Of a stretch of 64,000 bases of DNA, positions 2,346 to 63,853 are shown one piece after another. Source of the stretch: an uncultured Selenomonadales bacterium. Its GTDB lineage: Bacteria; Bacillota; Negativicutes; Selenomonadales; Selenomonadaceae. Every line of letters begins with the position of its first letter. Position 1 is the stretch's first letter. The stretch spans positions 20,358 to 84,357 of the forward strand of contig CAMUZU010000006.1 in assembly GCA_947165295.1 (NCBI GenBank), given 5' to 3'. The position numbers and the translations under genes are program-made. The notes below the pieces were generated by a model. It was not told the DNA's origin, searched no databases, and saw only the letters and a program-made list of their open reading frames with translations.

Positions 2346-2489
2346 CGCGACGGTAACCGACCGTCATGAACACGCGAAATTCCGGCCGTCACGGATGACG
2401 GCCGCAGTCGCCTGTCGCACGATACAGGATGTATCGTAGCAGGCGCAGTTTTCTTTGGTTACTTTCTTTTGCTGCCAAAAGAAAGTAAC
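2346..2489 (+). repeat. Mosaic three-hairpin intergenic repeat, copy 1
   Basis: CGCGACGGTAACCGACCGTCA..., HP1 CGGCCGTCA-cgga-TGACGGCCG, HP2 CGCCTG..ACGATAC-aggat-GTATCGT..CAGGCG, HP3 GTTACTTTCTTTTG-ctgc-CAAAAGAAAGTAAC. Confidence 0.75.
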
Positions 2490-5938: not shown

Positions 5939-5979
5939 ATCGGCGGTGAGTTGCCTCGCAACGAATTGCAATTAAAAAT

Positions 5980-6010
5980 CCCCGTCACAAGCGTGGCGGG
6001 TTTTATTTTT
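5980..6010 (+). terminator. Intrinsic terminator after lpxI
   Basis: CCCCGTCAC-AAGC-GTGGCGGG hairpin, then TTTTATTTTT. Confidence 0.6.
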
Positions 6011-6022
6011 GAGGTGAGCAAC

Positions 6023-6703: not shown

Positions 6704-6894
6704 CGCGACCGCAATGGAAATTTGTTCGGGCGTAACGATTAAAAATGTTCGCTGGGAACTTGACGGCGCGACTTTGACGCAGAATTTCCCGAACGCAATC
6801 AGCAACCGCGTCGAAGGCGACAAAGTTTCAATCGGCGTCGAAGTCGGCAAGCTTGCGGTGTACCTGTGCTTTACCGAATAACACAACCGCGACG
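6539..6894 (+). repeat. Tandem duplication (2 x 178 bp) of the 3' end of the thiamine pyrophosphokinase gene plus about 13 nt of downstream sequence
   Basis: Copy 2 (6717-6894) differs from copy 1 at only a handful of positions and contains its own ATG (6714) and TAA. Confidence 0.85.
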
Positions 6895-7012
6895 GAAACT
6901 CCGGCCGTCATGGATGACGGCCGCGCCCGACGTGTTCGCTTCGATTGGCGAGGCGGTCAACCAACTGTTCCCCCGCTTTTAAAGCGGGTCTTTCGCGCCG
7001 AAAGAAAGTAAC
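6886..7012 (+). repeat. Mosaic intergenic repeat, copy 2 (partial, with a nested GCTTTAAAAGC element)
   Basis: HP1 CGGCCGTCA-tgga-TGACGGCCG at 6901-6923 and an HP3-like CTTTCG..CGAAAGAAAGTAAC at 6988-7012. Confidence 0.65.
6929..6988 (-). mobile_element. GCTTTAAAAGC-hairpin element, copy nested in the mosaic repeat
   Basis: The reverse complement reads CCCGCTTTAAAAGCGGGGGAACAGTTGG... Confidence 0.5.
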
Positions 7013-10396: not shown

Positions 10397-11884
10397 TTGG
10401 ACAACAACGACAACCCGAAGTCCAAAACAAGCATCTGGTCAATAATCCTCCTTGTGGCGTGCTTTATCGGAGCGGCCGTCGCGGGCGCAATGTTCGCCGA
10501 ATCAACTTTGTTCGACGGCAACGACCCGCCGCGACGAATCGTCAGCACGAACGAAAACGCGGAGGAACTCATAAAGGCACGCGACAAGTCGACAATTTTG
10601 ATTATGGGCGTGGACAAGCGCGAAGACGACGTCGGACGTTCCGATACGCTCATGATTGCAACCGTTGACCCGCGGCTTGATCGGGCGACGCTCTTGTCAA
10701 TTCCGCGTGACACTCGCGTAAGGATTTACGGTCTCGGCTACGACAAAATCAACGCGGCGTTCGCTTACGGCGGCGTCGAGCTTGCGGAGTCAACCGTTGA
10801 AAATTTTTTGGGCATCGACATCGACCATTATATTTTGATTGACACGGGCAGTTTCGTCAAAATCATCGACGCGATTGGCGGCGTGGACATTGACGTTGAA
10901 AAGCGCATGTTTTACGAAGACCCCTGGGACGACAACGGCGGGCTTGTGATTGACTTGTACCCCGGTCAACAGCACATGGACGGCAAAACCGCCGTGACTT
11001 ACGTGCGTTACCGCGACTCCGAAGGCGACATCGGGCGCGTCAAACGTCAGCAAGCGTTCATGGCGGCTTGTTTGGACAAAGTCACCTCGCCCGAAATCGT
11101 TCCGCGAATCCCGAAAATTCTGCGCGAAGTGATTGACGCCGTCGAAACGGACATGTCGCTGCGTCAGCTGTTGGAAGTTGCCGGCGCGCTCAAAGCCGCT
11201 CAACAGAACGGACTTGAAACGGACATGGTGCCCGGTTACCCGCTGTACATCGACGATATCAGCTATTGGATACCCGACGTCGAACAGCTGAGAATTTCCG
11301 TTGCCGACGCGCTGGGCATTACCGTTGACCCGCTGCTTCGTGAACGTTTCGAGCGGGCGGCGCGTGAGTACAGCAATTCAATTCCCGACGGCGCACGCGA
11401 CGTGCCCGAAGACGACGACTCAATCGGGCGACCCGTGCGCGACAGCCGCGAAACCCGCCGACGTTTGGAAGACCGCACGACCGTCAACGAACGGCGAACT
11501 TACGACGAAGACCGCAGGACTTCAATCGACGAACGCACGCATACAAACGACCGCAGAACTTCAATCGACGAGCGAACGACCGTCAACGGCCGCCGGACTT
11601 CCGACGACGACCGAACGCGTACAGACGACCGCAGAACTTCAGTTGACGAACGCACGAATTCAATCGACGACAACGAACGTGCGCGCTACGAAGATCGACG
11701 CTCCTCAATCGAGGACGACCGAACCCGTCACGAAGACCGACGCTCTTCAATCGAGGACGAACGCGACCGAACCGACGACATCGGGCGAATGTCCGACACG
11801 TCGCAGATTGAACGGCGCACTGTTCCCGAAACGACTTTCGACGAACCGTCACGCAACGACAACTCACCGAAGACGAGGTATTGA
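10397..11884 (+). CDS. LytR-CpsA-Psr (LCP) family protein with a long charged repeat tail
   Basis: N-terminal TM helix, then an LCP core (ILIMGVDKREDDVGRSDTLMIATVD...LSIPRDT...KINAAFAYGG). The C-terminal ~150 aa is a D/E/R/S/T repeat region. TTG 10397 follows GGAGGTGG. Confidence 0.8.
   Translation: MDNNDNPKSKTSIWSIILLVACFIGAAVAGAMFAESTLFDGNDPPRRIVSTNENAEELIKARDKSTILIMGVDKREDDVGRSDTLMIATVDPRLDRATLLSIPRDTRVRIYGLGYDKINAAFAYGGVELAESTVENFLGIDIDHYILIDTGSFVKIIDAIGGVDIDVEKRMFYEDPWDDNGGLVIDLYPGQQHMDGKTAVTYVRYRDSEGDIGRVKRQQAFMAACLDKVTSPEIVPRIPKILREVIDAVETDMSLRQLLEVAGALKAAQQNGLETDMVPGYPLYIDDISYWIPDVEQLRISVADALGITVDPLLRERFERAAREYSNSIPDGARDVPEDDDSIGRPVRDSRETRRRLEDRTTVNERRTYDEDRRTSIDERTHTNDRRTSIDERTTVNGRRTSDDDRTRTDDRRTSVDERTNSIDDNERARYEDRRSSIEDDRTRHEDRRSSIEDERDRTDDIGRMSDTSQIERRTVPETTFDEPSRNDNSPKTRY
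11510..11665 (+). repeat. Four tandem 39-nt units inside the LCP gene (13-aa DRRTSIDERT..N repeats), with degenerate copies out to about 11775
   Basis: Units start at 11510, 11549, 11588 and 11627. Confidence 0.8.
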
Positions 11885-12594: not shown

Positions 12595-13086
12595 ATGAAT
12601 CGAACGACACGCACGGTTGTAAAAATTTTTTTTATCGCGGCGGTGACTGTCGCCTGTATCGCGCCGGCTTATTACCTCGGCTCGAACTTGACGGGGCACG
12701 CGCTGGCGACGGCCTCGGACAACATGAACTATTCGCGGTGGCTGGAAAAATATTTCGTCTTGACGCGGGCGACGGGCTTGCTCAACGGACTTTGCGCACT
12801 GAGCTGGTTCCTTGCGGCAAGATTTTTTTTCGCGGTTGACGACGTGACAAGCGCGGGCAAACGAATCTTCTGGACGGGACTGTTGACGGCGTCGCTTGCG
12901 ATAAGTTTGGGTGTGCCGCACGTTTACGCGCCAATGCTCGGAATCAAACTCAACGGAATTGTCTTCGCGCTGTTCGCAGGCATCTTCACGGGCTTGGGCT
13001 ACTGGCTGTTGACGATTTTCACGTCGCCGCTTGCGTTCAAGTACACACCGCTCGGCGCACAACTTTTCGGGAGGCGTCGCGCATGA
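12595..13086 (+). CDS. Integral membrane protein (about four TM helices)
   Basis: 163 aa and hydrophobic. RBS GAAGGCGGAG. Its stop overlaps the next ATG (ATGA). Confidence 0.65.
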   Translation: MNRTTRTVVKIFFIAAVTVACIAPAYYLGSNLTGHALATASDNMNYSRWLEKYFVLTRATGLLNGLCALSWFLAARFFFAVDDVTSAGKRIFWTGLLTASLAISLGVPHVYAPMLGIKLNGIVFALFAGIFTGLGYWLLTIFTSPLAFKYTPLGAQLFGRRRA

Positions 13087-14468
13087 GTTATCTTTTCGTT
13101 TCAATCGGCGGCACGGGCGCGAAAGTCATGGAGGCGTTGACGCACCTTTGTATCGCGGGCGGCTTGTCGGGCGACGAACGACTTTATATCGCGGCGATTG
13201 ACCCCGATGTCGGCAACGGCAACTTGGAACGCACGTCGACCGCGCTAAACAATTTCGCCGTGTTTCAAAATCTTTCCGTCGGCATGGACACCGCGCTGTT
13301 CAAGAACAAAGTTTCGATCCTGCGACCGTTTCCGTGGAACCCGACCGGCCACGACAAGACGCTTGACGACCTGATCGAATTTCATCATCACAGCAATACG
13401 CCCGTCGGTGAACTGTACGAAACTTTGTACACGCGACGCGAACGCGACACGACGCTCAACGAAGGCTTTCGCGGACACCCGTCGATTGGCGCGGCGGTTT
13501 TGGCGAAGAAATTCGACGACGGCTCGAAACTCACCGCGCAGATTGAAAAAATTCTCGGCGAAGGCGACAGCGTCAAAATTTTTCTTGCAGGCTCGGTCTT
13601 CGGCGGCACGGGCGCGGCGGGTCTTCCGACCGTTGCTCGACTGCTCAAAAACAATCTTGCCGATTACGCGGACAGGATTTCCGTCGGCGGCGTATTGATG
13701 TTGCCGTACTTCAGCTTCACGCCCGACCCGAACGTCGACGAACTTTTTGCCCGCAGTGAAAACTTTTTGGCGAACACGAAGGCGGCTCTGCGTTACTATT
13801 CCGAACGCGAAAATCTCTTCGACGCGGTTTACTTCGTCGGCGATTCGGTCATGACGCCCGTCGCGGAATTTTCCGTGGGCGCGGCGAATCAGCGCAATGA
13901 AGCTCACGTCGCCGAACTTTACGCGGCATTGGCGGCGGCTGATTTCTTCGCGCAACCGTTGCATTCGCCGAAAACTTTCAAGTACATTTGCCGTCACGCG
14001 CCGAACAAATTTTCGTGGGACGACCTGCCGACTTCGCGGGAACGTTTCGCGCAGTTCGCCCGATTTATCTTCGCGTTCGTGCATTTGATTAAGCCTGTGC
14101 TGAGCGACTTGTCGGCGGGCAACGCGAAGGCTTACAAATATCCGTGGTTCGTCGATTATCTCGACGGCGTGGACGTGACGGCTCCCGACGCGGTGAACTT
14201 CAGCTTTTACGCGGAGGCGTTCGCGGCGTGGCTCAAACAACTTGAAACTCTCGACGGGCGCGAAGTCTTCTTGATTGACCCGTCGATGTTCGATGCGAAT
14301 CCTGCGCGGCTTGTCGACAAGAAACTTTTCGCGTCAATCGACGGCAACAAGTCAAAGTTGACCGTGCACGAAGTTTGGTATCGGTTGACGGAGCCCGCGA
14401 AGTTTGATTCGACGGTTAAAGGTTTCGGCAAGTTTCTGCGGCGGCTGTACGATTGTTGCGCGGTGTAA
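13083..14468 (+). CDS. FtsZ/tubulin-superfamily-like protein (Tubulin_2-type)
   Basis: 461 aa. N-terminal [15 protein letters not shown] and [22 protein letters not shown] resemble the FtsZ T4 loop AGMGGGTGTGAAPVIA. Confidence 0.55.
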
Positions 14469-14567
14469 ATTTTTTCCGCGTCGACAACGTTTGACTTGCG
14501 ATAACGTTGCGGGTCGCTCCCGTTGGATGCAACGTCACGTTGCCGGCGGCTGTACGATTGTTGCGCG
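14439..14567 (-). mobile_element. 81-nt insert flanked by 24-bp direct repeats at the tubulin-like/ABC junction (partial relative of the hairpin-element family)
   Basis: DR CGGCGGCTGTACGATTGTTGCGCG at 14439-14462 and 14544-14567. The insert reverse complement shares CCGCAACGTT.TCGCAAG with the cobU copy. Confidence 0.6.
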
Positions 14568-16533: not shown

Positions 16534-16639
16534 GTTACTTTTCTTTTGGCGCAAAAGAAAAGTAACCAAAAGAAAACAGCCCGCAGGTGAAACATCCTGT
16601 TTCAACCGCGGGCGTGCGGCCGTCATCCATGACGGCCGG
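16534..16639 (-). repeat. Mosaic three-hairpin intergenic repeat, copy 3 (inverted)
   Basis: The reverse complement gives HP1 CGGCCGTCA-tgga-TGACGGCCG, HP2 GCCCGC..TGAAAC-aggat-GTTTCA..GCGGGC and HP3 GTTACTTTTCTTTTG-cgc-CAAAAGAAAAGTAAC. Confidence 0.75.
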
Positions 16640-16709
16640 ATTTTCGTTGAGCGTGTCGAGTTTGTAACCAAGACCAACGAAATTTTCCGATAGTAATCAG
16701 ATGGGCGGT

Positions 16710-22342: not shown

Positions 22343-22824
22343 GACTTCATAACCTTTTCAAAACGGAAGAAATAATCGCCGCCCGTGTCCGCTGCGGGAT
22401 GATGCGGGTTGAAAAATTCCACGGCGTGAAAGCCGCATTTGTTGATGTAAAAATGCAGGTTGCGTTTGGCAAAGTAAGGCGTCGCGGTCTCCCAAACTTG
22501 AGTATCGGGGTAACGCGCTTCAATCGCCTGCCACGCCGCAAAGCCGATGTCCTTGCCGAGCAAGTCGACGTTCACGAAGAACAACAGCAGTTCATTGCGA
22601 TTGTCGGGGCGAATCACGACGACAGCTCCGCCGACGATTTTTCCCGCACGAACGATGTTCAAAACTTGCGCACCGTCCGCGTTGAAACTTTCCAAAATGT
22701 CTTCGCGGGAAATAATTTCGTCGTCGTCGCAGAAACCGGCGGCACCTTTTTGGAACGACGCCTGCAGATTGACGATAAAATCTTCGCGTTCGGCGTCACT
22801 CGTCGGGACAAGTTCAATCTTCAT
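22339..22824 (-). CDS. GNAT-family N-acetyltransferase
   Basis: 161 aa with a GNAT-like core (IVGGAVVVI...LLFFVNVDLLGKDIGFAAW). Overlaps both cob neighbours by 4 nt. Confidence 0.65.
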   Translation of the reverse strand: MKIELVPTSDAEREDFIVNLQASFQKGAAGFCDDDEIISREDILESFNADGAQVLNIVRAGKIVGGAVVVIRPDNRNELLLFFVNVDLLGKDIGFAAWQAIEARYPDTQVWETATPYFAKRNLHFYINKCGFHAVEFFNPHHPAADTGGDYFFRFEKVMKS

Positions 22825-23381
22825 TCAATCACCTCTGCAAGTTTGCGCACGTCGACGGCAAGACCCGCGACGGTCAAGAAAACTTTTTCGGCTTCGGCGG
22901 CGAGCATTTGGTTGGCAATTCCCGCCAAGTCACGGAAACGGCGCGCAAGTTTGTTGTCGGGGACGATGCCGTTGCCTACTTCGTTCGTGACGAAAATCGT
23001 CGTCGCGTCGGAAGACTTCGCCGCGTCAATCAGCTTTTGAATCAGCCGGCGCAGTTCGTCGCAAAGAATTTTTTCGTCGTCGACAACTGCCGCGCAAAGA
23101 AAGTTGCTCACGTAAAGCGTCACGCAGTCGAACAAGATCGCGTCGAAAGTTTCGGCGGCTTCGGAAATTTTTTCTTCCGCGCAGAAAGGAGCCTCGAACG
23201 TCCGCCAATTCACGCCGCGACGACTTTGGTGAAGTTTGACGCGGAAAATCATTTCGTCATCAAAAACTTGCGCGGTGGCAATGTAAGCCGCCCGACCGTT
23301 GCCGATTTTGAGCGCGAGTTTTTCGGCGAAAGAACTTTTGCCGCTGCGTGCGCCGCCCGTCACAAGAATAATTTTGCCCAC
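22821..23381 (-). CDS. cobU: Adenosylcobinamide kinase / adenosylcobinamide-phosphate guanylyltransferase
   Basis: 186 aa with P-loop ILVTGGARSGKSSFAE, YIATA and WRTFE motifs. GTG start follows GGAGG. Confidence 0.88.
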   Translation of the reverse strand: MGKIILVTGGARSGKSSFAEKLALKIGNGRAAYIATAQVFDDEMIFRVKLHQSRRGVNWRTFEAPFCAEEKISEAAETFDAILFDCVTLYVSNFLCAAVVDDEKILCDELRRLIQKLIDAAKSSDATTIFVTNEVGNGIVPDNKLARRFRDLAGIANQMLAAEAEKVFLTVAGLAVDVRKLAEVIE

Positions 23382-23533
23382 GATGTCAACCTCCGTTCAA
23401 GTCGGCGCGTTCAACCGTAACATCGCGGCTTGCGAAAACGTTGCGGATTACACCAAGAGTTCTCCCGCTTTTAAAGCGGGTGCCGCTGCGTGCGCCGCCC
23501 GTCACAAGAATAATTTTGCCCACGATGTCAACC
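23339..23533 (-). mobile_element. GCTTTAAAAGC-hairpin element (89 nt) flanked by perfect 53-bp direct repeats at the cobU start
   Basis: DRs 23339-23391 and 23481-23533 are identical. Insert 23392-23480 ends in CCCGCTTTTAAAGCGGG. Confidence 0.7.
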
Positions 23534-25517: not shown

Positions 25518-25766
25518 ATGTGTTTGGCATTTCCCGCGAAGGTCGTGGCGATTGACGGCGACTTGGCGACGGTCGAGCGTGCGGGCGTGAAACGTTCGGC
25601 AAGCTTAATGCTGTTGCCCGAAGCGAAAGTCGGCGACTTCGTGCTGATTCACGCGGGTTTCGCAATGCAAACGATTGACGAGAGCGAAGTTCAAATCCGC
25701 GACGCACTTGTTGCCGAAATGAACGGAGCACCGCGCACGGTCGAAAGTCTGTCGGAGGTCTCGTGA
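25518..25766 (+). CDS. hypC: Hydrogenase maturation protein HypC
   Basis: 82 aa beginning MCLAFPAKVV, the canonical HypC N-terminus. Confidence 0.9.
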   Translation: MCLAFPAKVVAIDGDLATVERAGVKRSASLMLLPEAKVGDFVLIHAGFAMQTIDESEVQIRDALVAEMNGAPRTVESLSEVS

Positions 25767-25940
25767 TGACCGACACGTTGAAGTTGGTCAAAAAAATTTC
25801 GGTCGCTTTAAAAGCGACGGAACAGTTGACGCGTTGCGGTCGTTCAACTTTCAAGTTTGTTGCCGCGTGCGGACGTCACAAAAATTTTTACGGGAGCTTG
25901 ACAAATGGCTGATACGTTGAAACTCGTCAAAAAAATTTCG
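25766..25940 (+). mobile_element. GCTTTAAAAGC-hairpin element (103 nt) flanked by diverged 36-bp direct repeats at the hypC/hypD junction
   Basis: DR1 ATGACCGACACGTTGAAGTTGGTCAAAAAAATTTCG, DR2 ATGGCTGATACGTTGAAACTCGTCAAAAAAATTTCG. The insert starts GTCGCTTTAAAAGCGACGGAACAGTTGAC. Confidence 0.65.
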
Positions 25941-32436: not shown

Positions 32437-32464
32437 CCCGTCAACCGTGACGGGAATTTTTTTT
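32437..32464 (+). terminator. Intrinsic terminator after the PRD regulator
   Basis: CCCGTCA-ACCG-TGACGGG plus a T8 run. Confidence 0.8.
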
Positions 32465-32555
32465 GCGACAACGTCACGACGTGAAAACTGTACTCGACAG
32501 ACGGTTACGCGCCCGAAAAAATTGTGTTACACTTGCGACGAAAGGAGGCACGTCC

Positions 32556-33455
32556 ATGAAAGATTATGTCGCTGAATTCCGACAAGCCGTCGCCGCCATT
32601 GACGCCGACGCGCAACGGGTCAACATCATCAACGCCGGCATCATGAATCACGGCAAAAGTTCGCTGCTTAATTCGTTGCTCGACAAAGTTGTTTTCGCCG
32701 AACAAGACGTGCGCACGACGATTGCAGTTCAAGCCGAACATTGGCGCGACAACGTTTATTTAATTGACACGCCCGGTCTTGACGCGAAATCCGAAGACGA
32801 CACCGCCGCTTACGAGGCCTATCGACGCGCCAACGTTATTTTGTTCGTCCACCGCGTCGACACGGGCGAATTGCACAGGGACGAAATCGACGGTCTCAAT
32901 CGAATCAAAAACATTTTCGCAGGCGGAAACTTCGTCGAACATTTTTGCTTGATTTTTACTGTCACCGATTCAAAGGAAACGCCCGAAGATCTCAAAGTCA
33001 TTTGCGACAAATCGCTTGCCGACATCAAAAATCACTGCGGACTGTCGGGCTTCAGAAATTTTTGCGTGTCGAATTCGCTGTACAGGCAGGGCAAAGACGA
33101 ACACGAAGATTTATTCGTCGAGGACAGCGGCGTCCTTGAACTGCGCGAATATCTCGAACGAAATTTCGACAAGTGGCGCGGAGAAAATCAAGCCGTCCGC
33201 AACGCCCGAATTGCCCGCGAAAAAGACGACTTCATTTCGCGACTGCAACGGGAGCGTTCCGACGTTCAAGCGCGTATTCAGTCGAAAAGCGAACGAATTC
33301 GGCAGCGTCAACAAAATTTTTTGCACAAAGTCGAAACGGCGTTAAGTCAGCGGCGCGACGACGAATCACGTTACAATTCCGAATCACGGCGGCTTGACGA
33401 AATGCGTCGCGAACTGCAAAATCTGCGTGACCGTTGGAACCGCGAACGTTACTGA
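32556..33455 (+). CDS. GTPase (dynamin/Era-like G domain) with a C-terminal coiled coil
   Basis: 300 aa. G1 AGIMNHGKSS, G3 DTPGL. The R/E/Q-rich C-terminal ~100 aa is heptad-like. AAAGGAGG RBS. Confidence 0.75.
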   Translation: MKDYVAEFRQAVAAIDADAQRVNIINAGIMNHGKSSLLNSLLDKVVFAEQDVRTTIAVQAEHWRDNVYLIDTPGLDAKSEDDTAAYEAYRRANVILFVHRVDTGELHRDEIDGLNRIKNIFAGGNFVEHFCLIFTVTDSKETPEDLKVICDKSLADIKNHCGLSGFRNFCVSNSLYRQGKDEHEDLFVEDSGVLELREYLERNFDKWRGENQAVRNARIAREKDDFISRLQRERSDVQARIQSKSERIRQRQQNFLHKVETALSQRRDDESRYNSESRRLDEMRRELQNLRDRWNRERY

Positions 33456-33474
33456 AATTTTCGGAGGTGATTTT

Positions 33475-33876
33475 ATGGCGTTCATTTGGGCTGTACCTGC
33501 GGGCGCGCTCGTTTACAAAGCCGCTCACGGCGATTATTCCGACCACAGCAGACACAGCAGGTATCACGAATACGGCGATTCGGCTTTGCGTGAACAAATT
33601 CGTCGCAAGGAGACCGACATCAGCCGCAAAGAATCCGACGTTGAAACTGCGCGTCGACGCATGGAAGACAATTTCAATTCGCGTGTCAATGAACTTAAGC
33701 GCGAACGAAATTATTCGGGCTTGAATTACGTGCCGAACATGATGGTTTCCGAAGTCAAAGACAACATGCGCCGCGAACTTGACAACGAACTCAAGCACGA
33801 CCGCGACGAACTTGCCGCCATTGACGATATGATTAGCCGAATTAACGAACTTGAATTGCAGGTGAAGCGCAAATGA
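33475..33876 (+). CDS. Coiled-coil protein, paralog 1 (hydrophobic N-terminus plus His/Ser/Tyr-rich patch)
   Basis: 133 aa. MAFIWAVPAGALVYKAAHGDYSDHSRHSRYHEYGDS..., then a coiled coil. GGAGGTG RBS. Confidence 0.65.
   Translation: MAFIWAVPAGALVYKAAHGDYSDHSRHSRYHEYGDSALREQIRRKETDISRKESDVETARRRMEDNFNSRVNELKRERNYSGLNYVPNMMVSEVKDNMRRELDNELKHDRDELAAIDDMISRINELELQVKRK
33764..33836 (+). repeat. 73-nt segment identical to 34192-34264 (3' ends of the two coiled-coil paralogs)
   Basis: Compared base by base by eye. Confidence 0.85.
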
Positions 33877-34301
33877 GCGACCTTGAAGATTATTACTACG
33901 AAAGGTTTGCAGAAGCTTTTAATTGTGAAAATGTAGCGCGTACAATATTTCGTTCAATTGCGGGAGCTACGGGTCTTGCCGTCAAAGGTGTCAACGACAA
34001 ACTCGCCGAAATTCGTTGGGCGATTGAAGACAAAGAAAAATTGATTCGCCGCAAAGAATTCGACGTTGAAAATCTTCGGCGTTGCGTCGACGAAAATTTT
34101 TCGACACGAATCAACGAACTTCGTCGCGAAAAATTTTATCCCGCGTTTAACTACTCGACGACCGCGAATTTGTTGACGAACATCAAAGCCGACATGCGCC
34201 GCGAACTTGACAACGAACTCAAGCACGACCGCGACGAACTTGCCGCCATTGACGATATGATTAGTCGGATTAACGAATTGGAACTTCAAAGCACAAGGTG
34301 A
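33873..34301 (+). CDS. Coiled-coil protein, paralog 2
   Basis: 142 aa with an ATGA overlap with paralog 1. The C-terminal 35 aa is identical to paralog 1 (MRRELDNELKHDRDELAAIDDMISRINELELQ). Confidence 0.65.
   Translation: MSDLEDYYYERFAEAFNCENVARTIFRSIAGATGLAVKGVNDKLAEIRWAIEDKEKLIRRKEFDVENLRRCVDENFSTRINELRREKFYPAFNYSTTANLLTNIKADMRRELDNELKHDRDELAAIDDMISRINELELQSTR
34192..34264 (+). repeat. 73-nt segment identical to 33764-33836
   Basis: Compared base by base by eye. Confidence 0.85.
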
Positions 34302-34305
34302 TTTT

Positions 34306-36069
34306 ATGAGCTACATTACGCAGACCGTCGACGAATTTTTTATCAAGCTCGACAAGATGCAACGCGACCTTGACAAATTTTCGCAGAACCTTGACCGTCG
34401 CAGCGAACAAATTCCGTCGCTGTTGAAAACTTTTGAGCAGACCGTTTTCACTGCGAGCGGCAAAAAAATTTCGGGCAATAACGCCGTCGAACGCGCCGCT
34501 CAAAAATCGTTGGACAACATGCGCGCCGTCGTCGAAAGTTGGCGTGACAAAATCGAAGCCGACCGCAAAGGCAAACAGTTTATCGCGAAGAACGAAAAAT
34601 TTCTCGTCGTGATGGTTTTCGGTGCAGTCAAAGCCGGCAAGTCGACACTCGGAAATTTCTTCGCGGGCAAAAATTTTCTCAACGCGCCGTTCGATAACCG
34701 TTACAAACAAATTTCCAAGCCGATTTTCGAGACCGAAGAGAGCGGCCGCGACACGGGCGGAATTGAAACCGATTCAAGCGGCGACACCTGGTTTAAAGAA
34801 GGTCACGTCGACACGACGGGCGCGATTCAATTTTTCACGCTCAGCGGACTGCGCTGGATTGATTCGCCCGGCACGGGAGCCGTCGGCAAGTCGGGCGACA
34901 GCAAAGACATGACCGCGCTCGTCGAAGAATATTTGCGATATACCGACATGTGCATTTTCCTGATGAACAGCGGCTCGCCCGGACTGCAAGACGACATGCG
35001 ATATATTCAAAAACTCAGCCGCGACGGGCAGGACGCCTTGATTGTCATCACGCGCTCCGACAAAAACAAAGCCGTAATTTTGCGCGACGAAAACGGCAAC
35101 AAGCAACGCGGTTCCGTGCTTGTCCCGAAAGACGACGCGACCCGCAAACTTCAAGAGGACGACATCTGCAAGCGCGTCAAGGAAGAATATCCCGAAGTCG
35201 ACGTGCAAAAGTTCCGCGCAATCAGCACGTCGACCGCGTTGGCATGTGAAGCCGTCAACGAACAGAGCGACGAAAAATTTCGTGACAGCGGTCTCGATAA
35301 GCTCATGCAGATTTTGGGCGACAAAGTCAGCGACAATGCCATTGCCCGTAAGCAGGAAAATCCGCGCAGGTTGCTCAACGGTTTCGTCGACACCATTGTT
35401 GACGACCTGAAAAATTTCGACAGCGACCTTGACGAAATGACCGCCGCCGTCGAAAAATACAAAGCCGACATGAAACGCTTGACGACGCTGATTGTCAGCA
35501 ATGTGAGCCGTGAAGTTCGGTCGGAAATTTCATCACGCGCCATTGATTGGAACCGTCAAGTCAACCGCGGCGGGAAAGTCGACAACGAGACAATCGCCGC
35601 CGCCGTCACCGAAATTTTGCGCGACAAACTTAACGCCGAAATCAATTCGCAGATGCGCCGCGTCATCGAAGATTTTCAGAGCAACGAACTCAAAACCGTC
35701 AAGGCGAACATTTCCGCCGCCGCGCTCGAAAAGAAAACCGTCGAAATTTCGCACACGTACACCGAAAGCTACACCGTCGAACGCGAACCCGAAGGCATCA
35801 TCGAAAACATTCGCGGCTTTTTCGGCAAGAAATATTACCGCCGCGAAGACGAGACGCGCACGAAAACGCAGACGATTGACTTGGGCACGAACCTCGACGA
35901 GTTTTTGGACAGCTTGACGCCGCAGGTTGAACGATACGCCAAAAGTCAAGCCGAAACGACTCTTGCCGAGTTGCGCGAAAAATATTTCGTCGAACGCGAA
36001 AATTTTGCCCGTCGGATGCGCGGCGCGATTGACAAACTTCGCGGCGAATTGCTTGCGTTGAAGTTTTGA
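34306..36069 (+). CDS. Dynamin-like GTPase (587 aa)
   Basis: G1 FGAVKAGKST, G3 DSPGTG, G4-like ITRSDK, followed by a long helical stalk-like region. Confidence 0.75.
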   Translation: MSYITQTVDEFFIKLDKMQRDLDKFSQNLDRRSEQIPSLLKTFEQTVFTASGKKISGNNAVERAAQKSLDNMRAVVESWRDKIEADRKGKQFIAKNEKFLVVMVFGAVKAGKSTLGNFFAGKNFLNAPFDNRYKQISKPIFETEESGRDTGGIETDSSGDTWFKEGHVDTTGAIQFFTLSGLRWIDSPGTGAVGKSGDSKDMTALVEEYLRYTDMCIFLMNSGSPGLQDDMRYIQKLSRDGQDALIVITRSDKNKAVILRDENGNKQRGSVLVPKDDATRKLQEDDICKRVKEEYPEVDVQKFRAISTSTALACEAVNEQSDEKFRDSGLDKLMQILGDKVSDNAIARKQENPRRLLNGFVDTIVDDLKNFDSDLDEMTAAVEKYKADMKRLTTLIVSNVSREVRSEISSRAIDWNRQVNRGGKVDNETIAAAVTEILRDKLNAEINSQMRRVIEDFQSNELKTVKANISAAALEKKTVEISHTYTESYTVEREPEGIIENIRGFFGKKYYRREDETRTKTQTIDLGTNLDEFLDSLTPQVERYAKSQAETTLAELREKYFVERENFARRMRGAIDKLRGELLALKF

Positions 36070-36078
36070 GGCAACGAC

Positions 36079-37260
36079 ATGCAAATCATTTTGAAATTGA
36101 CGACGGCTTGTAACCTGAACTGCGTCTACTGCAGCGAAGGCGACTTGCCCGCCGAAACTTTGCTGCAAGAAATTTTCTTCAAGCTGGTTGACGAACTGCC
36201 CGCGCTCCTTGACAATTTCGGTCAACGGGACGCGGAATTTTTGTTTCACGGCGGCGAACCCATGCTTTACGGGCAACAAAATTTGCGGACGCTGATCGAT
36301 TATGCGCGTGAAAATCTCGACGGTTACGACCTGCGATTTTTAATGCAGACGAACGGCACGTTGATTGACGACGCGTGGATAAATTTTTTCCGCGACGAAA
36401 AAATCTCCGTCGGCGTGTCGCTGGACGGTTATCCCGAACTTCACGACAAAAATCGCCGCACGAAGTCAAACGAGCCGACCGCCGAAAAAATTCTTTCCAA
36501 CCTGCGGAAAATGCGCGACGCGGGCTTGAGTGTCGGGACGCTGATGGTTTTCAATTCCGCCGCAACCGTCGACGCCGAAAAGCTTTTCGACTTCATTCAG
36601 GCGAACGAACTGCACCCGAAAATTCATTCGGTCGTGCCGTGCGGACGTGCTGCCGACGTGAAAAATTCCGCCGAAATTTACGACGCGTGGGTTGCGCTCA
36701 TGAAAAAACTGTTCGAGTTGTCGCTTGCCCGCGAAAGTTCAAAAGTCATTGAGCCGCTTGATGAACTTGTCGACGCGATTTTGGGTATTTCGCCGCTCCG
36801 CGAGTGTTCGTTCAACGGCACCTGCGGGAAAAATTTCGTCAGCGTTTATCCCGACGGCGAAGTCGGTTTCTGCGGACGTGACAACCTTGCACGTTGCTTG
36901 ACTTACGGCAACCTGCGCGAAAAAACGTTGCTTGAGCTGTACACGTCGACGAACGCGGAAAAAATTCGGGCGCGACAAGATTATCTTCAAACGCACGACT
37001 GCAAAAATTGTTCGGATTGGCAACTTTGTCACGGCGGCTGTGCTTTCGAGGCGGTCAACTTTTCGGGCACGCTTGAGGCGAAATATCCGCATTGTTCGGC
37101 GCGAAAAAATTTTCTGTCGTGGCTGCATGGTGACGGCTTGAAACTTTTGAAGACCGCACTTGTCCGCGAAAAGAAACGGCTTCGGCAGTCGATTCGCGTC
37201 AAAAAGCAACTGCGCGACGAAATTGAAAATCTTGGTGTTGACGATGCTTGCCCGCTTTAA
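36079..37260 (+). CDS. Radical SAM enzyme with SPASM domain (anSME/peptide-maturase-like)
   Basis: CNLNCVYC at 36109-36132. SPASM Cys motifs ECSFNGTCG...PDGEVGFCG and CKNCSDWQLCHGGC. Confidence 0.85.
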   Translation: MQIILKLTTACNLNCVYCSEGDLPAETLLQEIFFKLVDELPALLDNFGQRDAEFLFHGGEPMLYGQQNLRTLIDYARENLDGYDLRFLMQTNGTLIDDAWINFFRDEKISVGVSLDGYPELHDKNRRTKSNEPTAEKILSNLRKMRDAGLSVGTLMVFNSAATVDAEKLFDFIQANELHPKIHSVVPCGRAADVKNSAEIYDAWVALMKKLFELSLARESSKVIEPLDELVDAILGISPLRECSFNGTCGKNFVSVYPDGEVGFCGRDNLARCLTYGNLREKTLLELYTSTNAEKIRARQDYLQTHDCKNCSDWQLCHGGCAFEAVNFSGTLEAKYPHCSARKNFLSWLHGDGLKLLKTALVREKKRLRQSIRVKKQLRDEIENLGVDDACPL

Positions 37261-37326
37261 AAGCGGCGGAACAACTGGAGTTATCCGTGACGTTTTCTTG
37301 ACGATTGAGGTTTGCAACGATGCTTG
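37241..37326 (+). mobile_element. GCTTTAAAAGC-hairpin element (66 nt) flanked by 10-bp direct repeats at the radical SAM/radical SAM junction
   Basis: DR ACGATGCTTG at 37241-37250 and 37317-37326. The insert reads CCCGCTTTAAAAGCGGCGGAACAACTGGAGTTATCCGTGACGTTTTC... Confidence 0.65.
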
Positions 37327-39044
37327 ACATTCTATTTCTGAACATACACCGCCGGTATCTGAATTCTGCGCCTTCGCACGGCGGCTTTCTGGGCATTTAC
37401 CTGCTGTCGGCGTTTGTGCGTCGCGAAGGCTACGAGTCGAAAAGTTTTTCGGGCACATTGACGGCGGGACTTCAACACGTCGACGAACTTTGCGCGGCGG
37501 GCGAAGTCGACATGATCGGGCTGTATTGCGATTACGAGAACGTCACCGAAAATATTTTTTTGAGCCGACACGTCAAGCAAACGTACAACTTGCCCGTGAT
37601 TGTCGGCGGTCCTCAAGCGACGGCACTCGACGAAAAATTTCTGCGCGAATCGAAATGTTATGCCGTTGTTCGCGGCGAAGGCGAATTGACCGTGCTTGAG
37701 CTGATGAATTTTTTTCTGGAAGATGTCGGCTCGCTCGAAAAAATTTCGGGCATTGCTTACCTGCGCGGCGACAAGTTTGCGATTAATCCCGCTCGCCCGC
37801 CGATAAAAAATTTGGACGCCTTGCCTTTCGTCGACGAGGATTGTTACCTTGAGCCGGAAGATTTTTCACGCGACTTCAGCTTGATGACGGGTCGCGGCTG
37901 TCCGTTCAACTGCGCGTTTTGTCACGAAGGCATCGGACGCGGCGTGCGTTTTCGGTCGGCTGAAAACGTGCTTGCCGAGATTGACGAACGGCTGAAAAAT
38001 TTTCCGCCCGACGACGAACTTTACATTTTGTTCACGGACGACACGTTTACGCTCGACGGTGCACGCGTCAAAAAAATCTGCGACGGGCTTGCCGAACGCC
38101 GCAAGTCGCGCAGATTCAAATTTTTTTGCGAAGGTCACGTGCACACGCTGTACAAAAATCCCAAAATGATTCGCTGCCTTGCCGCGGGTGGTTGCGTGCG
38201 ACTTCAGCTCGGCATTGAGGCCGGCACCGAAAAAGTTTTGCGCGCTTACGTCAAGCAGTCGACGCCCGAAGAAATTTTCGCTGTCGTGCGGCTTTGTCGT
38301 GACGCGGGCATTGAGCAAGTTTACGGCAACATCATTTTGGGCGGCGCGAATTTTTCACGCGAAACTTTTGCGGCGGACAAAAAATTTGCGCACGAACTCA
38401 TTGCCGAAGGTCAAGGCGTCGTCGAACTCGGCGTTGTGACTTTTTGGCCGCTTGCCGAAACGAAAATGACTCGTTGCCCCGACGAATTCGGGATAAAAAT
38501 TTGCGACGCGGACTTTTTGACTTCGGTCGGCGACTTTCCGCAAGTCGAAACTTTCGAACTTGACCGCTTGACGATTTTGGAAATGCGCCGCGAACTCACC
38601 GACGAAATTTCCGCGCAGATGGTCGATATGCTTGAAAATTGGCGCGTGCCGACGGAAAAAATTTTGTCGTGGTTGCGTGAAGCTCGGCTCCGAAAAAATT
38701 ACAGCGCGTGGTTCACCGAACTTTTGCGACGGGAAATTTTGTTCGCCTACTATGAAATGCTCGAACGCGGCGAAGGATTTCACTCCGCACAGGTCGAAAA
38801 TTTGTCGACGGCACACCCGTTGCGCGTTGTCGAACTGGTCAAACATCTGCGGCGAATCGACGCGTCGACGGCTCAAATTTGCGGCGAAACTTTTTCGGGC
38901 GACGAACTTGAAATTTTATTGCTCACGACGGGCAAACTCAGCGTCGAAGAAATTTCCCGTCGCGTCAACCGAACAATTTCCGACGTGCTGAAAATTTTGG
39001 CGCGGCTTGAACGTCGACACCTAATCGTATACACTTTGCATTGA
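37320..39044 (+). CDS. B12-binding-domain radical SAM enzyme with a C-terminal winged-helix-like extension
   Basis: N-terminal Rossmann-like B12 domain (MIGLYCDY...PVIVGGPQAT) and GRGCPFNCAFCHEG at 37899-37922. The last ~55 aa (ELEILLLTTGKLSVEEISRRVNRTISDVLKILARLERRHLIV) look wHTH/PqqD-like. Confidence 0.8.
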   Translation: MLDILFLNIHRRYLNSAPSHGGFLGIYLLSAFVRREGYESKSFSGTLTAGLQHVDELCAAGEVDMIGLYCDYENVTENIFLSRHVKQTYNLPVIVGGPQATALDEKFLRESKCYAVVRGEGELTVLELMNFFLEDVGSLEKISGIAYLRGDKFAINPARPPIKNLDALPFVDEDCYLEPEDFSRDFSLMTGRGCPFNCAFCHEGIGRGVRFRSAENVLAEIDERLKNFPPDDELYILFTDDTFTLDGARVKKICDGLAERRKSRRFKFFCEGHVHTLYKNPKMIRCLAAGGCVRLQLGIEAGTEKVLRAYVKQSTPEEIFAVVRLCRDAGIEQVYGNIILGGANFSRETFAADKKFAHELIAEGQGVVELGVVTFWPLAETKMTRCPDEFGIKICDADFLTSVGDFPQVETFELDRLTILEMRRELTDEISAQMVDMLENWRVPTEKILSWLREARLRKNYSAWFTELLRREILFAYYEMLERGEGFHSAQVENLSTAHPLRVVELVKHLRRIDASTAQICGETFSGDELEILLLTTGKLSVEEISRRVNRTISDVLKILARLERRHLIVYTLH

Positions 39045-39058
39045 GGAGGTCACACGTT

Positions 39059-40753
39059 ATGAACGAGCTGAAAGATTATCAACAGATCTTGTCCGACAAG
39101 GCGACGCGTGCCGAAACTTTTTTCGCGAAATATCCCGACGCCGACGCGCTTGCCAAAAATTTCGCCGACATCAACGCGGGCAAAATTCGCAAAGTCGAGC
39201 CCGAAATCATGGTTTACGGCATTTACAACGCGGGCAAGTCCAGCATTTTGAACGAAGTTATCGGCGCGGACAAGGCAAAAGTCGCGGACGTGCCGACGAC
39301 CGACACGGTGACTTATTACGAGTGGAACGGCTACCGAATCGCCGACACGCCCGGCATTTTCGCGCCAATCGCTCACCAGAACGTTACGCAGGAACATCTC
39401 AAAAAAGCCGACATCGTCCTGTTCGTCATGAGCAACGACGGTCAATACGAGCGCAAAGAAAATTACCTGCGCATGAAAGACATCGCCGACGCGGGCAAAA
39501 AAGTTATCATCGTGCTCAACGACAAAGACGGCATGTTGGGCGAACGCAATGACGCGCTTCAAGACGTTAAGCGGAAAATCGCCGTGAACATGAAAACGGT
39601 CGGCATTGAAAACGTCGACGAAAAATATTGTATCGTCACGGTGAACGCGGATCTTGCGCATCAAGGTCGCCTGGAAAACGAACCGTTGTTTGTCGCCGAC
39701 AGCGGGCTTGATGAACTCAAAAGCGTCATCCTCAGCGAACTCAAACGCACGACTTCGTTCGTCCTGTTGCGCAACGGAATCACGCAACTCGAAGAAATTT
39801 TGACCGAATTCGTCGACCAACTCGAATCACGGGAAAGTTCCGCTCTGCTGCGTGAAATGAATCGCGTACTCGAAACCTTCAACCGACAAAAAATTTCCAT
39901 GCGCCGCGACATCAACGCGTTTATCGACCGGCAGGCGGACACTTTCGGCGCGACGTTGCCGCAGAAAATTTGGGACAACCGCGACAGTCAAGACCGCATC
40001 AACGAAGTTTTCGGCGCGGAAATCGAACGTTTCAACTCACGCGTTCAACAGGAAATTCAACGTCAAATTCAAGACGCGGCGACGATTTTGGAACTTGAAC
40101 TTAAATCCTTCACCGAAGTGAAACTCGACGCGTCAACCGTCGACACCGCAAGTTTCGGAAAAATTTTGTCGCGGCTCAACGAAGTCAACGCCTCGTCAAC
40201 TCAAGCACTTGTCGCACGTGACGGCGAATCGAAAGTTGACCCGCTGACAACGGGCTTGACGACGACATTTTTGGCAGACGGCGGCGCGATAATCGCCAAA
40301 GAAGTCGCCAAAACCGCGCTCGGCAAGGCGATAACCAATTCCGCGCTCGGAAAAATTTTAACTTCGGTCGTGCCCGCGCCGTTCGTGCCAATCACCGTGA
40401 TTGTCGGCGGAATTCTTTTGCTCAAAAAACTTTTCGGCGGCGACGACGGCAAGGAACTCAACGCGCAAGTCGACGCAAAAAACGAGGCGGAACGTCGACG
40501 CGTCGAGGCCGAAATGCAAGCGCGGCAGGAACTCAATCAGAAATGCCGTTACCTTGCCGAAGAACTTGCCGACGACTTGAAATCCGCCGCAGATTTGGGC
40601 ATCGCCGAAACTTTGGCAATGTACGAGGAGCCGTTCAAAGCCGAAATCGCCGCACGAAAATCCGAGACCGCGCAGGTTGCCGACGACGTTTTGAAGTTGC
40701 GCGAACTGCTCAACGAATACGATTTACTTCGCGTCGAATTGGGCGCACGATAA
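39059..40753 (+). CDS. Dynamin-like GTPase with a hydrophobic paddle/TM segment (564 aa)
   Basis: G1 YGIYNAGKSS, G3 DTPGIF, G4 LNDKD, helical stalk, and hydrophobic ILTSVVPAPFVPITVIVGGILLLKKLF (nt 40355-40432). Confidence 0.75.
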   Translation: MNELKDYQQILSDKATRAETFFAKYPDADALAKNFADINAGKIRKVEPEIMVYGIYNAGKSSILNEVIGADKAKVADVPTTDTVTYYEWNGYRIADTPGIFAPIAHQNVTQEHLKKADIVLFVMSNDGQYERKENYLRMKDIADAGKKVIIVLNDKDGMLGERNDALQDVKRKIAVNMKTVGIENVDEKYCIVTVNADLAHQGRLENEPLFVADSGLDELKSVILSELKRTTSFVLLRNGITQLEEILTEFVDQLESRESSALLREMNRVLETFNRQKISMRRDINAFIDRQADTFGATLPQKIWDNRDSQDRINEVFGAEIERFNSRVQQEIQRQIQDAATILELELKSFTEVKLDASTVDTASFGKILSRLNEVNASSTQALVARDGESKVDPLTTGLTTTFLADGGAIIAKEVAKTALGKAITNSALGKILTSVVPAPFVPITVIVGGILLLKKLFGGDDGKELNAQVDAKNEAERRRVEAEMQARQELNQKCRYLAEELADDLKSAADLGIAETLAMYEEPFKAEIAARKSETAQVADDVLKLRELLNEYDLLRVELGAR

Positions 40754-61842: not shown

Positions 61843-61866
61843 CAACTTTTGGTTGCTCGCCTTTTA
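61832..61866. terminator. Bidirectional terminator (ogg / SH3 paralog 1)
   Basis: A5, GACGGGCAAC/GGTTGCTCGCC hairpin, T4. Confidence 0.45.
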
Positions 61867-61890
61867 AAGTGGCCGGGAGTCTGTCGAAAA

Positions 61891-63839: not shown

Positions 63840-63853
63840 ACGAATTATGCACG

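Follow-up and report, generated by a model that had tools for sequence, protein, structure and literature searches.

Among the described systems closest in form to the DNA reported here are the REP/BIME/REPIN-RAYT repeats: short GC-rich hairpin sequences, present in high copy number in extragenic space near gene ends, built of mosaic modules without terminal inverted repeats (TIRs), with most copies lacking a linked transposase and with cleavage expected at a dinucleotide by the foot of the hairpin. An insert in front of cobU, found in a 64,000-nucleotide stretch of DNA from an uncultured Selenomonadales bacterium (the window), and a family of sequences related to it share these features. The family nevertheless differs from REPs: these have no target duplication, whereas 48% of the copies described below have flush direct repeats; the GTAG or CGTC tag of REPs (PMC3733652) is missing from the family heads; only a 5' head is kept, followed by 30-100 nt of variable body; and neither the window nor the loci scanned yielded a RAYT gene. 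IS200/IS605 elements, which like REP-RAYT make no target duplication (PMC2817692), and PATEs resemble the family in having hairpin-defined ends, no TIRs and insertion 3' of a short specific single-stranded sequence, but they have two subterminal hairpins and a fixed tetra- or pentanucleotide target, where the family has a hairpin at the tip of one end only and a target that is simply C-purine.

Long direct repeats (8-514 bp) are produced by IS1549 and IS1634, by a mechanism that is not known (PMC2266710). These are the only bacterial elements documented in our literature search with long duplications that, as in the family, vary from copy to copy; they are, however, autonomous ISs of 1.5-2 kb with TIRs and a transposase, whereas family members are 50-125 nt long, asymmetric and TIR-less. 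An initial annotation of the window, made from sequence alone (the first-pass annotation), had held long variable duplications to be unlike the products of known transposases, a claim that these two elements contradict. Target-primed reverse transcription of eukaryotic LINEs and SINEs likewise leaves an exact end opposite a variable one, with duplications of variable length, all of which the family shares, but the family has no poly(A) and no sign of an RNA intermediate, no reverse transcriptase (RT) was found in the window or the loci scanned, and we know of no retroposition of this kind in bacteria.

Mycobacterial MIRUs, Correia elements of Neisseria and enterobacterial ERIC sequences are likewise small, occur at junctions between genes of an operon and form tandem copies. 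MIRUs contain small ORFs that overlap the flanking stop and start codons, and Correia elements affect expression of neighbouring genes; however, MIRUs belong to the minisatellites and show neither hairpin head nor target duplication, and Correia and ERIC sequences possess TIRs and duplicate a fixed TA. The family is MITE-like in being small, non-coding, multicopy and polymorphic for presence and absence, but it lacks the TIRs and the fixed short duplication of MITEs. Among bacterial small repeats, the combination of an exact hairpin head, absence of inverted repeats, a purine rule at the insertion point and duplications that range from 10 to more than 100 nt is a distinct architecture. No earlier description was found in the literature on Quinella repeats, Selenomonas REPs or long variable duplications, and the tiny mobile elements that we report from Quinella-like bacteria of the rumen apparently form a family not described before. 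The cobU insert is probably one copy of this lineage-specific, small, non-autonomous, head-first, duplication-making family of rumen Selenomonadaceae.

The insert in front of cobU

The leader of cobU is present twice (Table 1), its copies T1 and T2 being identical at 53/53 positions; the pair extends to 56 nt with one mismatch (GGAGG vs GGCGG). Each copy holds the spacer, the GTG start and 14 codons, and 89 nt (23392-23480) lie between them, in agreement with the first-pass annotation. On the minus (cobU) strand the insert begins with a hairpin, H1, with a predicted DNA fold of -6.9 kcal/mol. Exact-protein look-ups of the window CobU and CobQ returned no match, so close homologues were used instead: a 98%-identical homologue of CobU (P0001) carries PF02283. 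T1 is contiguous with the native promoter side, which the compact leaders without the element in L113 and L119 identify as ancestral.

Table 1. Coordinates of features at the cobU locus and of related copies in the window.
Feature	Position	Strand	Remarks
T1, upstream duplication copy	23481-23533	-	Relic cobU leader spacer, GTG 23523-23521, 14 codons
Head hairpin H1, CCCGCTTTAAAAGCGGG	23464-23480	-	7-bp stem, 3-nt loop; exact 5' end of element
Element body	23392-23463	-	AGAACT, B-type motif GGTGTAATCCGCAACGTTT (23454-23436), variable tail ending ..GAACGGA
T2, downstream duplication copy	23339-23391	-	Functional spacer, GTG 23381, codons 1-14
cobU, adenosylcobinamide kinase/guanylyltransferase, 186 aa	22821-23381	-	ORF, and homologue with PF02283
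Relic ORF, 45 codons	23386-23523	-	From duplicated GTG through element; TGA 4 nt before true GTG
A-type copy, hypC/hypD junction	25766-25940	+	T1 25766-25801; element 25802 to about 25877 (76 nt); diverged duplicated hypC end/SD 25878-25904; T2 25905-25940 (hypD start)
B-type copy between two radical-SAM genes	37241-37326	+	Element 37251-37316; 10-nt repeats ACGATGCTTG at 37241-37250 and 37317-37326
B-type copy behind OGG-like gene	61732-61842	+	Element 61751-61823, 5' arm of bidirectional terminator; 19-nt repeats 61732-61750 and 61824-61842
H1-headed copy	6929-6988	-	Head 6972-6988; sits inside a different 3'-UTR repeat module
Sister-family (H3) copy	14439-14567	-	Element 14543-14463, starting with H3 GCAACGTGACGTTGC right after ..GCCG; 24-nt repeats 14439-14462 and 14544-14567

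The duplication leaves the cobU start intact, as had been proposed. The promoter-proximal copy keeps a relic GTG, from which a predicted ORF of 45 codons, annotated as a 45-aa gene in L107, would end just before the true GTG. Because the true GTG lies behind GGAGG, cobU should still be translated from its own ribosome-binding site; termination-reinitiation possibly contributes as well. The suggestion that the element had itself converted GGCGG to GGAGG needs correction: relatives carry either form at this position, so the change is not assignable to the element. No intrinsic terminator or promoter was found inside the insert (the sole promoter-like site in the scan belongs to sigH), and the RNA fold of the whole cobU unit is not unusual (z -1.24).

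Relatives show varied arrangements at this locus. The locus is a hotspot: L109 and L111 have tandem [target+element] units; L107 has a rearranged unit, with an insert body of identical sequence; and L108 contains the 3' 63 nt of the 'insert' but neither the hairpin nor the duplication. The cobU head is also the most deviant in the window, with AGAACT in place of GGAACA. As read from these alleles, the cobU locus is more than a simple one-step insertion, and although the first-pass annotation took it for the type copy, on sequence comparison it is a poor type specimen, the hypC/hypD copy being the clean case of the family. Assembly artefacts are excluded as the source of the duplications by identical structure in the independent assemblies L107, L109, L164 and L165.

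Related copies in the window

All five related inserts of the first-pass annotation are present with the repeats given for them, those at hypC/hypD being 36 nt long and 83% identical. Two have altered the ends of neighbouring genes: the gene upstream of the 37251 element now ends at a TAA within the hairpin loop, and the H3 element at 14463-14543 supplies GTG TAA to gene 13083-14468, the last 8 codons of which form the flanking repeats. No flanking repeat was detected at the 6929-6988 copy. The 17-nt hairpin H1 occurs in five copies per 64 kb, all at gene borders. The head of hairpin plus GGAACA is found five times in the window against about 0.1 expected, and the 19-position head five times against 0.07 expected, with no degenerate copies.

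Separately, a 178-nt tandem duplication at 6539-6894 has no element at its junction: gene-end duplications in this DNA can thus also arise without an element.

Distribution and anatomy of the family

The 13-nt core was found five times in the window against 0.43 expected, and a scan of a genome collection returned at least 106 stretches, with about 94 family copies at loci beyond the window among the matches listed, which bears out the earlier view of a dispersed repeat family. The hosts among the matches listed are all rumen Quinella-like Selenomonadaceae MAGs, including Quinella sp. 1Q7. Plasmid sequences gave no family match and four viral matches were chance hits to phage coding sequence: a plasmid or phage origin was accordingly rejected. 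A search for tRNA and tmRNA genes found none.

In every element an invariant head at the 5' end is followed by a body that varies. Heads are of type H1 (NNCGCTTTAAAAGCGNN, then GGAACA(G/A)TTG) or type H3 (GCAACGTGACGTTGC, then ATCCA(G/A)TTG) and begin with CC, GT or GC, after a purine that derives from the target. Bodies (A, B and short types) themselves form hairpins and have an imprecise 3' end; element length ranges from 49 to about 130 nt, with a floor of about 49 nt. Invariance among 53 aligned A-type copies is confined to the head, CGCG and CCGCG, no TIRs are present (the variable 3' end is not complementary to the head), and the outer two H1 stem pairs covary (GC 31 and CG 17; CG 33 and UA 18). 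Within one MAG, heads are perfect while identity between bodies at different loci does not exceed 79%. Near-identical copies were never seen at two loci of the same genome, by which a recent burst was rejected; this also counts against the explanation that we favor, and makes any activity today putative. Tandem arrays are frequent (L060, L049, L050, L051, L062, L070 and L093, in addition to cobU in L109 and L111).

A head far better conserved than the body, with a covarying stem, is also what a regulatory RNA acting in cis from a leader or 3' UTR, as an attenuator, a stabiliser or a site for protein binding, would present if conserved by selection on the host, and many copies do lie 15-30 nt 5' of Shine-Dalgarno (SD) sequences. 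However, the genes downstream are unrelated (recO, coaBC, thiC, purN, cobU, hypD, acrB-like, sufU-like), both orientations are found, and in near relatives the corresponding sites are free of the element. Rfam 15 gave no match at gathering score within the window, and at E<=1 there was none in the regions of cobU and hypD and none in a long A-type copy, by which a riboswitch or other known RNA was rejected. We regard regulatory conservation as an extremely improbable origin of the repeats; exaptation of single copies may have occurred.

Empty sites

Orthologous sites without the insert, the existence of which the first-pass annotation had anticipated, were found at eight loci, hypC/hypD and cobU among them, each with one uninterrupted target. 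At hypC/hypD the element is absent from L166, L167 and L168 but present in the window, L107, L164 and L165; apart from the compact cobU leaders, another six pairs are L006/L094, L012/L011, L079/L008, L051/L034, L036/L041 and L093/L071. Insertions in L017 and L037 are independent, at different positions of one junction.

Target duplications and insertion rules

Repeats flush with the hairpin (score >=10, ending exactly at hairpin base 1) accompany 48% of the 121 copies from which the family-wide rules were drawn, compared to 1% of 300 random positions. The duplicated stretch is the target 5' of the insertion point, present once on each side of the element. Its length, very variable as first noted, runs from 10 to over 110 nt (112), and tandem arrays occur in addition. 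What is repeated is the SD and start with 5-37 codons, the 3' end of a gene, or the A-tract of a terminator together with an arm. At the head the junction is exact, whereas no consensus marks the left edge of the repeat; the far edge of the duplication starts with A in 19/49 cases and with AAAA in about 11.

The base preceding the head (-1) is G in 33 and A in 20 of 53 sites, and never a pyrimidine (0/53); across 117 copies it is a purine in 95%. Position -2 is C in 64%. H3 heads follow the same rules, with a purine at -1 in 23/23 and flush repeats of 12-51 nt in seven. The -1 base is tied to the head variant (A before CC..GG, G before GT..AC), at a P of 2e-4 that is inflated by 12 composite copies. 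Guide-like pairing of the target end with GGAACA was considered and rejected, as the target (..G C R) is not complementary. Insertion points fall in the 5' arm of a predicted target hairpin in 48% of cases compared to 30% of controls, the figures for the 3' arm being 18% and 29%, a moderately significant preference (P about 0.01-0.03); the loop edge of target hairpins is also used. Orientation relative to the downstream gene is the same in 62 cases and opposite in 56, which rules out strict co-orientation.

Flush repeats, the purine rule and empty sites together argue that the family is one of small insertion elements headed by a hairpin and devoid of TIRs. As the repeats are read, the long variable duplications regenerate the gene starts, stops or terminators that were interrupted. 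The description of the family as junction-seeking therefore needs qualification: the location at gene borders stands, but insertion at purine sites in hairpin arms, followed by survival of those insertions that rebuild a signal, explains it better than an active preference, orientation being unbiased.

Could the same structures have arisen without mobility, by local tandem duplication, slippage or template switching at hairpins, or break repair filled from other copies? SbcCD-type nucleases cut hairpins on the 5' side of loops, and insertion points lie where such nucleases would cut; arrays are frequent, and the 178-nt duplication at 6539-6894 is element-free. However, one head and body recur at about 94 unrelated loci (among the matches listed) with an exact junction after a purine, which switching driven by microhomology should not yield, and orthologous empty sites have a single clean copy of the target. 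We give this non-mobile origin very little credence.

Search for a mobilising enzyme, and a possible mechanism

Absence of a transposase near the copies, as the first-pass annotation reported, was confirmed for the window proteins: Pfam searches of the 20 largest window ORFs identified no transposase, RT, integrase or HUH protein. In about 0.75-1 Mb of element-bearing loci, 959 ORFs were clustered by paralogy and 2830 ORFs scanned for motifs, with no recurrent paralogous transposase-like family and no HUH, HUH-Y, RT or YREK motif as the outcome. Inverted head pairs in L036 and L071 enclose housekeeping genes (ribE/ftsZ-type) and not RAYT.

Two described routes to long variable duplications bear comparison with these results. 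The elements could be miniature derivatives of an IS1634/IS1549-type DDE IS, mobilised in trans by a transposase making long variable staggered cuts: repeats of 10 to over 110 nt are within the 8-514 bp of those elements (PMC2266710). However, the 53 A-type copies lack TIRs, one element end is exact and the other fuzzy, no YREK-type transposase was present in the sequences scanned, and the remaining IS1634-family members make repeats of 5-6 bp; we think this derivation unlikely. SINE-like retroposition, in which a small RNA with the hairpin as its 3' end, complementary to the strand described here, is target-primed from a nick after the purine, would account for the contrast of exact and variable ends and, through incomplete copying and a staggered second nick, for the fuzzy far end and the varying duplication length; the A-runs at the far edge are in keeping with it, but are equally explained by selection that keeps terminators and SD enhancers intact. 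RT was absent from the window and the loci searched, the elements have no A-tail, the length floor of about 49 nt leaves no continuum down to the head, and orientation is unrelated to neighbouring transcription. Retroposition is, on balance, also improbable.

Returning to insertion elements mobilised in trans: because the window and the loci scanned yielded no gene for a transposase, RT or HUH protein, a polar head-first mechanism is something we infer. Insertion would be polar, with the head leading. A structure-specific trans-acting enzyme, at best guess an HUH/Y1-type single-strand nuclease, would cut the element where the head hairpin has its 5' foot, cut single-stranded target DNA after the equivalent purine, and then join both ends. 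Through its 3' end, which is free and imprecise, the transferred strand may pair further upstream and prime re-synthesis of the target, giving a long, variable duplication. The long repeats could later recombine to form tandem [target+element] arrays, and only those insertions would survive whose duplication rebuilds the interrupted signal. Known HUH/Y1 transposons make no target duplication, so the proposed resolution step is without precedent. That the family spreads by polar, hairpin-initiated copying new to bacteria, either by HUH strand transfer with microhomology-primed re-synthesis or by target-primed reverse transcription of a hairpin-ended RNA, is offered as a tentative and rather doubtful proposal. 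If true in either version, these would be the first bacterial 'one-ended' miniature elements to regenerate systematically, through long and variable target duplications, the gene end they hit. The origin of long variable duplications is unexplained even for IS1634/IS1549, and about 100 small insertions with empty sites provide a tractable data set.

Consequences at gene borders

Where the elements sit at the borders of housekeeping genes they give rise to relic starts, upstream ORFs, new C-termini and tandem arrays; gene calling and MAG assembly (contigs break in arrays) are thereby affected, and possibly expression. The host lineage comprises abundant, uncultured rumen bacteria linked to low methane emission. 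Relic ORFs read at most a few nt into the gene, and their stop lies within 7 nt of the true start in 4/15 cases, too few for general translational coupling, which was ruled out.

The two copies of a target also record allele history. Differences between repeats at third codon positions had raised programmed bypass or splicing of element plus repeat as a candidate. This was rejected by comparison of L079 with the outgroup L008, which places two derived changes in the relic copy and six in the functional copy: the functional copy is the one that diverged, as fits allelic replacement. The same comparison was taken to speak for the youth of the insertions. Relic copies are dated fossils of the resident allele, and show the pace at which functional alleles are replaced by recombination.

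An 89-nt insert flanked by a target duplication at cobU

The insert in front of cobU (adenosylcobinamide kinase) had been described as 89 nt bracketed by a perfect 53-nt duplication, and direct sequence comparison bears this out. On the minus strand the order from the promoter side is TTTTTTTTGGCGG, the upstream (relic) target copy T1, the insert, the downstream (functional) copy T2 and the remaining cobU. T1 comprises TTGACATC, GTG and 14 codons, ending ..AGCGGCA, and T2 is the identical 53 nt; the insertion site reads CGGCA/AAAG-TT-CTTTCGCCG. A head hairpin, H1 (CCCGCTTTAAAAGCGGG; 17 nt, 7-bp stem, -6.9 kcal/mol as a DNA fold), forms the 5' end of the insert and is followed first by AGAACT, next by the motif GGTGTAATCCGCAACGTTT and last by a tail. 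The 45-codon ORF reported earlier does start at the relic GTG, its TGA ending 4 nt short of the true GTG. The element had also been credited with turning GGCGG into a GGAGG Shine-Dalgarno sequence; since both forms occur in relatives, this credit is withdrawn. Near-neutral preservation of expression is the most likely reading of the element's function at cobU.

Related loci (L numbers; mostly rumen Selenomonadaceae MAGs) differ in this leader. L107 (98%) shares the element and T2 with the window, its T1 region being rearranged; in L109 (97%) and L111 (86%) repeats of at least 100-115 nt reach the contig start as tandem units, and the element of L111, again at codon 14, is of A type. In L108 (93%) a single start is preceded by 63 nt from the 3' end of the "insert", without H1, and in L110 a different insert follows codon 2-3. 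In L113 and L119 (79%) the leader is compact and lacks the element. Because the inserts of L107-L111 are tandem, rearranged, headless or differently placed, the cobU leader is a hotspot: it has been struck more than once, and recombination between units has reshaped it.

A family of elements with a conserved head

The first-pass annotation took the insert as one of a repeat family, and this main idea is upheld: the finding is real, and the five other inserts listed were all found with their repeats. The 13-nt core occurs five times in the window (0.43 expected), as does the 19-position head (0.07 expected; four perfect, the cobU copy with two mismatches); degenerate copies of the 19-position head are absent from the window. 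When the pattern CGCTTTAAAAGCGNNRGAAC was scanned against one genome per species, at least 106 stretches matched. Among the matches listed, about 94 are family copies, all from rumen Selenomonadaceae / Selenomonadales MAGs including Quinella sp. 1Q7, and the remaining 12 are unrelated coding sequence. Judged by its CobU and HypD homologues, the window's host is a Quinella relative among the rumen Selenomonadaceae; its HypD shares 75-78% identity with those of Quinella sp. 3Q1 and 1Q7. A plasmid search gave no match, a viral origin was rejected (four viral matches represent one phage gene), and a literature search found no earlier description of the family.

All H1 copies share H1 plus GGAACA(G/A)TTG. 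The outer stem pairs of H1 covary with compensation in 53 copies (GC 31 / CG 17; CG 33 / UA 18). A host regulatory RNA was considered as an explanation; Rfam gave no family match, even at E<=1. Behind the head lie several body types (table below), three window copies, that at cobU among them, being of B type. A second head, H3 (GCAACGTGACGTTGC plus ATCCA(G/A)TTG), occurs on the same kinds of body. Heads are perfect, bodies at different loci of one MAG are at most 79% identical, and terminal inverted repeats are absent from the elements. The family is best filed as small non-autonomous bacterial repeats with an unusual insertion signature.

Element forms of the family, and features in the window (coordinates refer to the window).
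Feature	Coordinates	Length	Remarks
cobU	22821-23381		minus strand
cobU duplication	23339-23391 / 23481-23533	53 nt	plus-strand comparison; 56 nt if one mismatch is allowed
A-type body		~76 nt	long hairpin closed by invariant CGCG...CCGCG
Long form		125 nt	extra hairpin GCAATGCnnnGCGCATTGC and CTAGYTTCRTAA
B-type body		60-75 nt	carries GGTGTTATCCGCGACGTTT
Short forms		~50 nt
Composite form			heads at both ends
H3-headed copy	14463-14543		read on minus strand
Gene-end repeat family	2371-2489 (+), 16534-16646 (-), 55853-55954 (+), 6894-6930		CCGGCCGTCAyGGATGACGGCCG, variable hairpin, long perfect hairpin GTTACTTTTCTTTTGc..gCAAAAGAAAAGTAAC
Tandem duplication	6539-6716 / 6717-6894	178 nt	95% identity; 3' end and stop of gene 5951-6703
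Perfect direct repeats	63766-63784 / 63821-63839	19 nt	around 36-nt insert GCAGTTCAATCGTCGCGAACGGTCATTGACGCGGGC, without hairpin head
Bidirectional terminator modules	61832-61870 / 63846-63885		near-identical, AAAAAGACGrrCAACTTTTGGTyGCTCGCCTTTTAAA; adjoin ends of paralogous small genes 61893-62189 (-), 63383-63694 (-)
Operon	32463-40753		three dynamin/GTPase-like and two radical-SAM proteins (one SPASM, one B12-binding)
Tubulin-like (Tubulin_2) gene	13083-14468		separate from operon
Coding tandem repeats	11468-11755	21/39-nt units	C-terminal part of LytR_cpsA_psr protein
Coding tandem repeats	321-1076	102-nt units	TPR-like; window's first gene

Flanking repeats and empty sites

A flush direct repeat (score >=10, upstream copy ending exactly at hairpin base 1) accompanies 48% of 121 H1 copies compared to 1% of 300 random positions, and H3-headed copies behave alike. 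The variable repeat lengths noted earlier extend, across the family, over a continuous range of 10-112 nt; ungapped lengths are underestimates, because long repeats frequently show divergence or indels in their upstream part. Tandem arrays of target plus element occur at about ten loci, that of L060 (1678-2170, minus-strand 3' end of a TatD-like gene) containing three elements and four target copies. The L060 TatD-like protein now takes its C-terminus, ..AANAMRLYDIFQKCTDAASG, from the element-side copy; the version in the relic copy is ..AANANELYKLF.

Orthologous loci lacking the insert, which the insertion reading predicts, exist: besides cobU in L113 and L119, they comprise the hypC/hypD junction and six more filled/empty pairs among MAG loci. 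At hypC/hypD, L166, L167 and L168 (HypD 85-86% identical) have a single ..GGGAGTTTTGTAA ATGGCTGACACG..AAATTTCG/CGGC, whereas in the window, L107 and L164/L165 (94%) an A-type element of 76 nt separates T1 from T2. The true extent of the duplication there is ~60 nt, made up of ~25 nt from the end of hypC and 36 nt of hypD. Judged by these orthologues, the junction is a clean case of insertion. L017 and L037 carry independent insertions in one junction at different positions.

Target choice and gene borders

Among 53 non-redundant sites, G immediately precedes the head at 33 and A at 20, with a pyrimidine at none; a purine precedes the head in 95% of all 117 copies. C occupies position -2 in 64% of sites, and G seldom follows the cut. 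The H1 variant tracks the preceding base (A before 32 of 43 CC..GG heads, G before 20 of 29 GT..AC heads), a link (chi-square p 2e-4; L001-L106 plus the window) partly due to 12 composite copies. Of the cuts in reconstructed empty sites, 48% fall in the 5' arm of a predicted hairpin (30% for random C-purine sites) and 18% in the 3' arm (29%), a skew with p about 0.01-0.03; terminator arms are a typical target, e.g. at window 61751. The non-head junction follows no rule of sequence, and elements of one type vary in length by ~10 nt; the element thus has one exact and one fuzzy end.

On crude gene calls, 62 elements point the same way as the next gene and 56 the opposite way, so orientation is unbiased. 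The repeats cover the Shine-Dalgarno sequence or start of a gene together with 5-37 codons, a gene's final codons (the element providing a stop or new tail), or a terminator A-tract plus left arm; in every case one complete functional signal remains. We read the gene-border bias as survivorship: a short duplication within a gene would be lost. ORFs from relic starts span 5-49 codons. Their stop is the TAA in the H1 loop in 6/15 and lies at most 7 nt from the true start in 4/15 (cobU, hypD, 37251, L012); none of the 15 enters the gene. From these stop positions translational coupling is plausible at cobU; as a design feature of the family it is rejected, only the four stopping so close.

Divergence between repeat copies

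T1 and T2 differ at L079, L042, L030, L012, L007, L071, L006, L017 and window 25766-25940. Coding differences fall at third codon positions in 28/33 cases (p 1.5e-9), with 25 codon differences synonymous vs 5 non-synonymous. In L079, with L008 as outgroup, six derived sites lie in the functional copy and only two in the relic, which is nearly frozen; in the hypD relic, non-synonymous changes do build up (e.g. L to P in L164). On the simplest reading, which we infer, the insertions would be young, and the functional copy would later be exchanged for diverged alleles through homologous recombination; the element, being a heterology, would force the crossover into T2. The pattern suggests that alleles are often replaced by recombination, which would halt at the element.

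A candidate mechanism

The observed basis consists of head junctions that are exact and follow a purine, duplications of long and variable length, empty sites and absent terminal inverted repeats. The reported lack of a nearby transposase extends further: no linked enzyme was found in the window or in related loci totalling roughly 1 Mb. The head might be joined to the cut target by a single-strand nuclease or transferase that acts in trans and is specific for hairpins; the loose 3' end would then pair upstream and prime re-copying of the target. Retroposition and repair-templated insertion were considered alongside, as was an IS1634-like DDE enzyme, IS1549 and IS1634 producing bacterial duplications of 8-514 bp (PMC2266710). 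IS200/IS605-type enzymes are the obvious hairpin readers, yet they make no target duplications (PMC2817692), whereas the elements described here do.

Other repeats and genes in the window

Transposition-related domains are absent from the proteins of the dynamin/radical-SAM operon and from the tubulin-like product. No element lies where the two units of the 178-nt tandem duplication meet; unrelated slippage, or the same process aborted, could account for it. The flank CATTTCGCATTGCAGTT of the headless 36-nt insert is found again in L104. The gene-end repeat family, always just past a gene end, also occurs in L031, L055, L098, L077 and L056, and the loop of its long hairpin seems to be where the double-headed composites lie.
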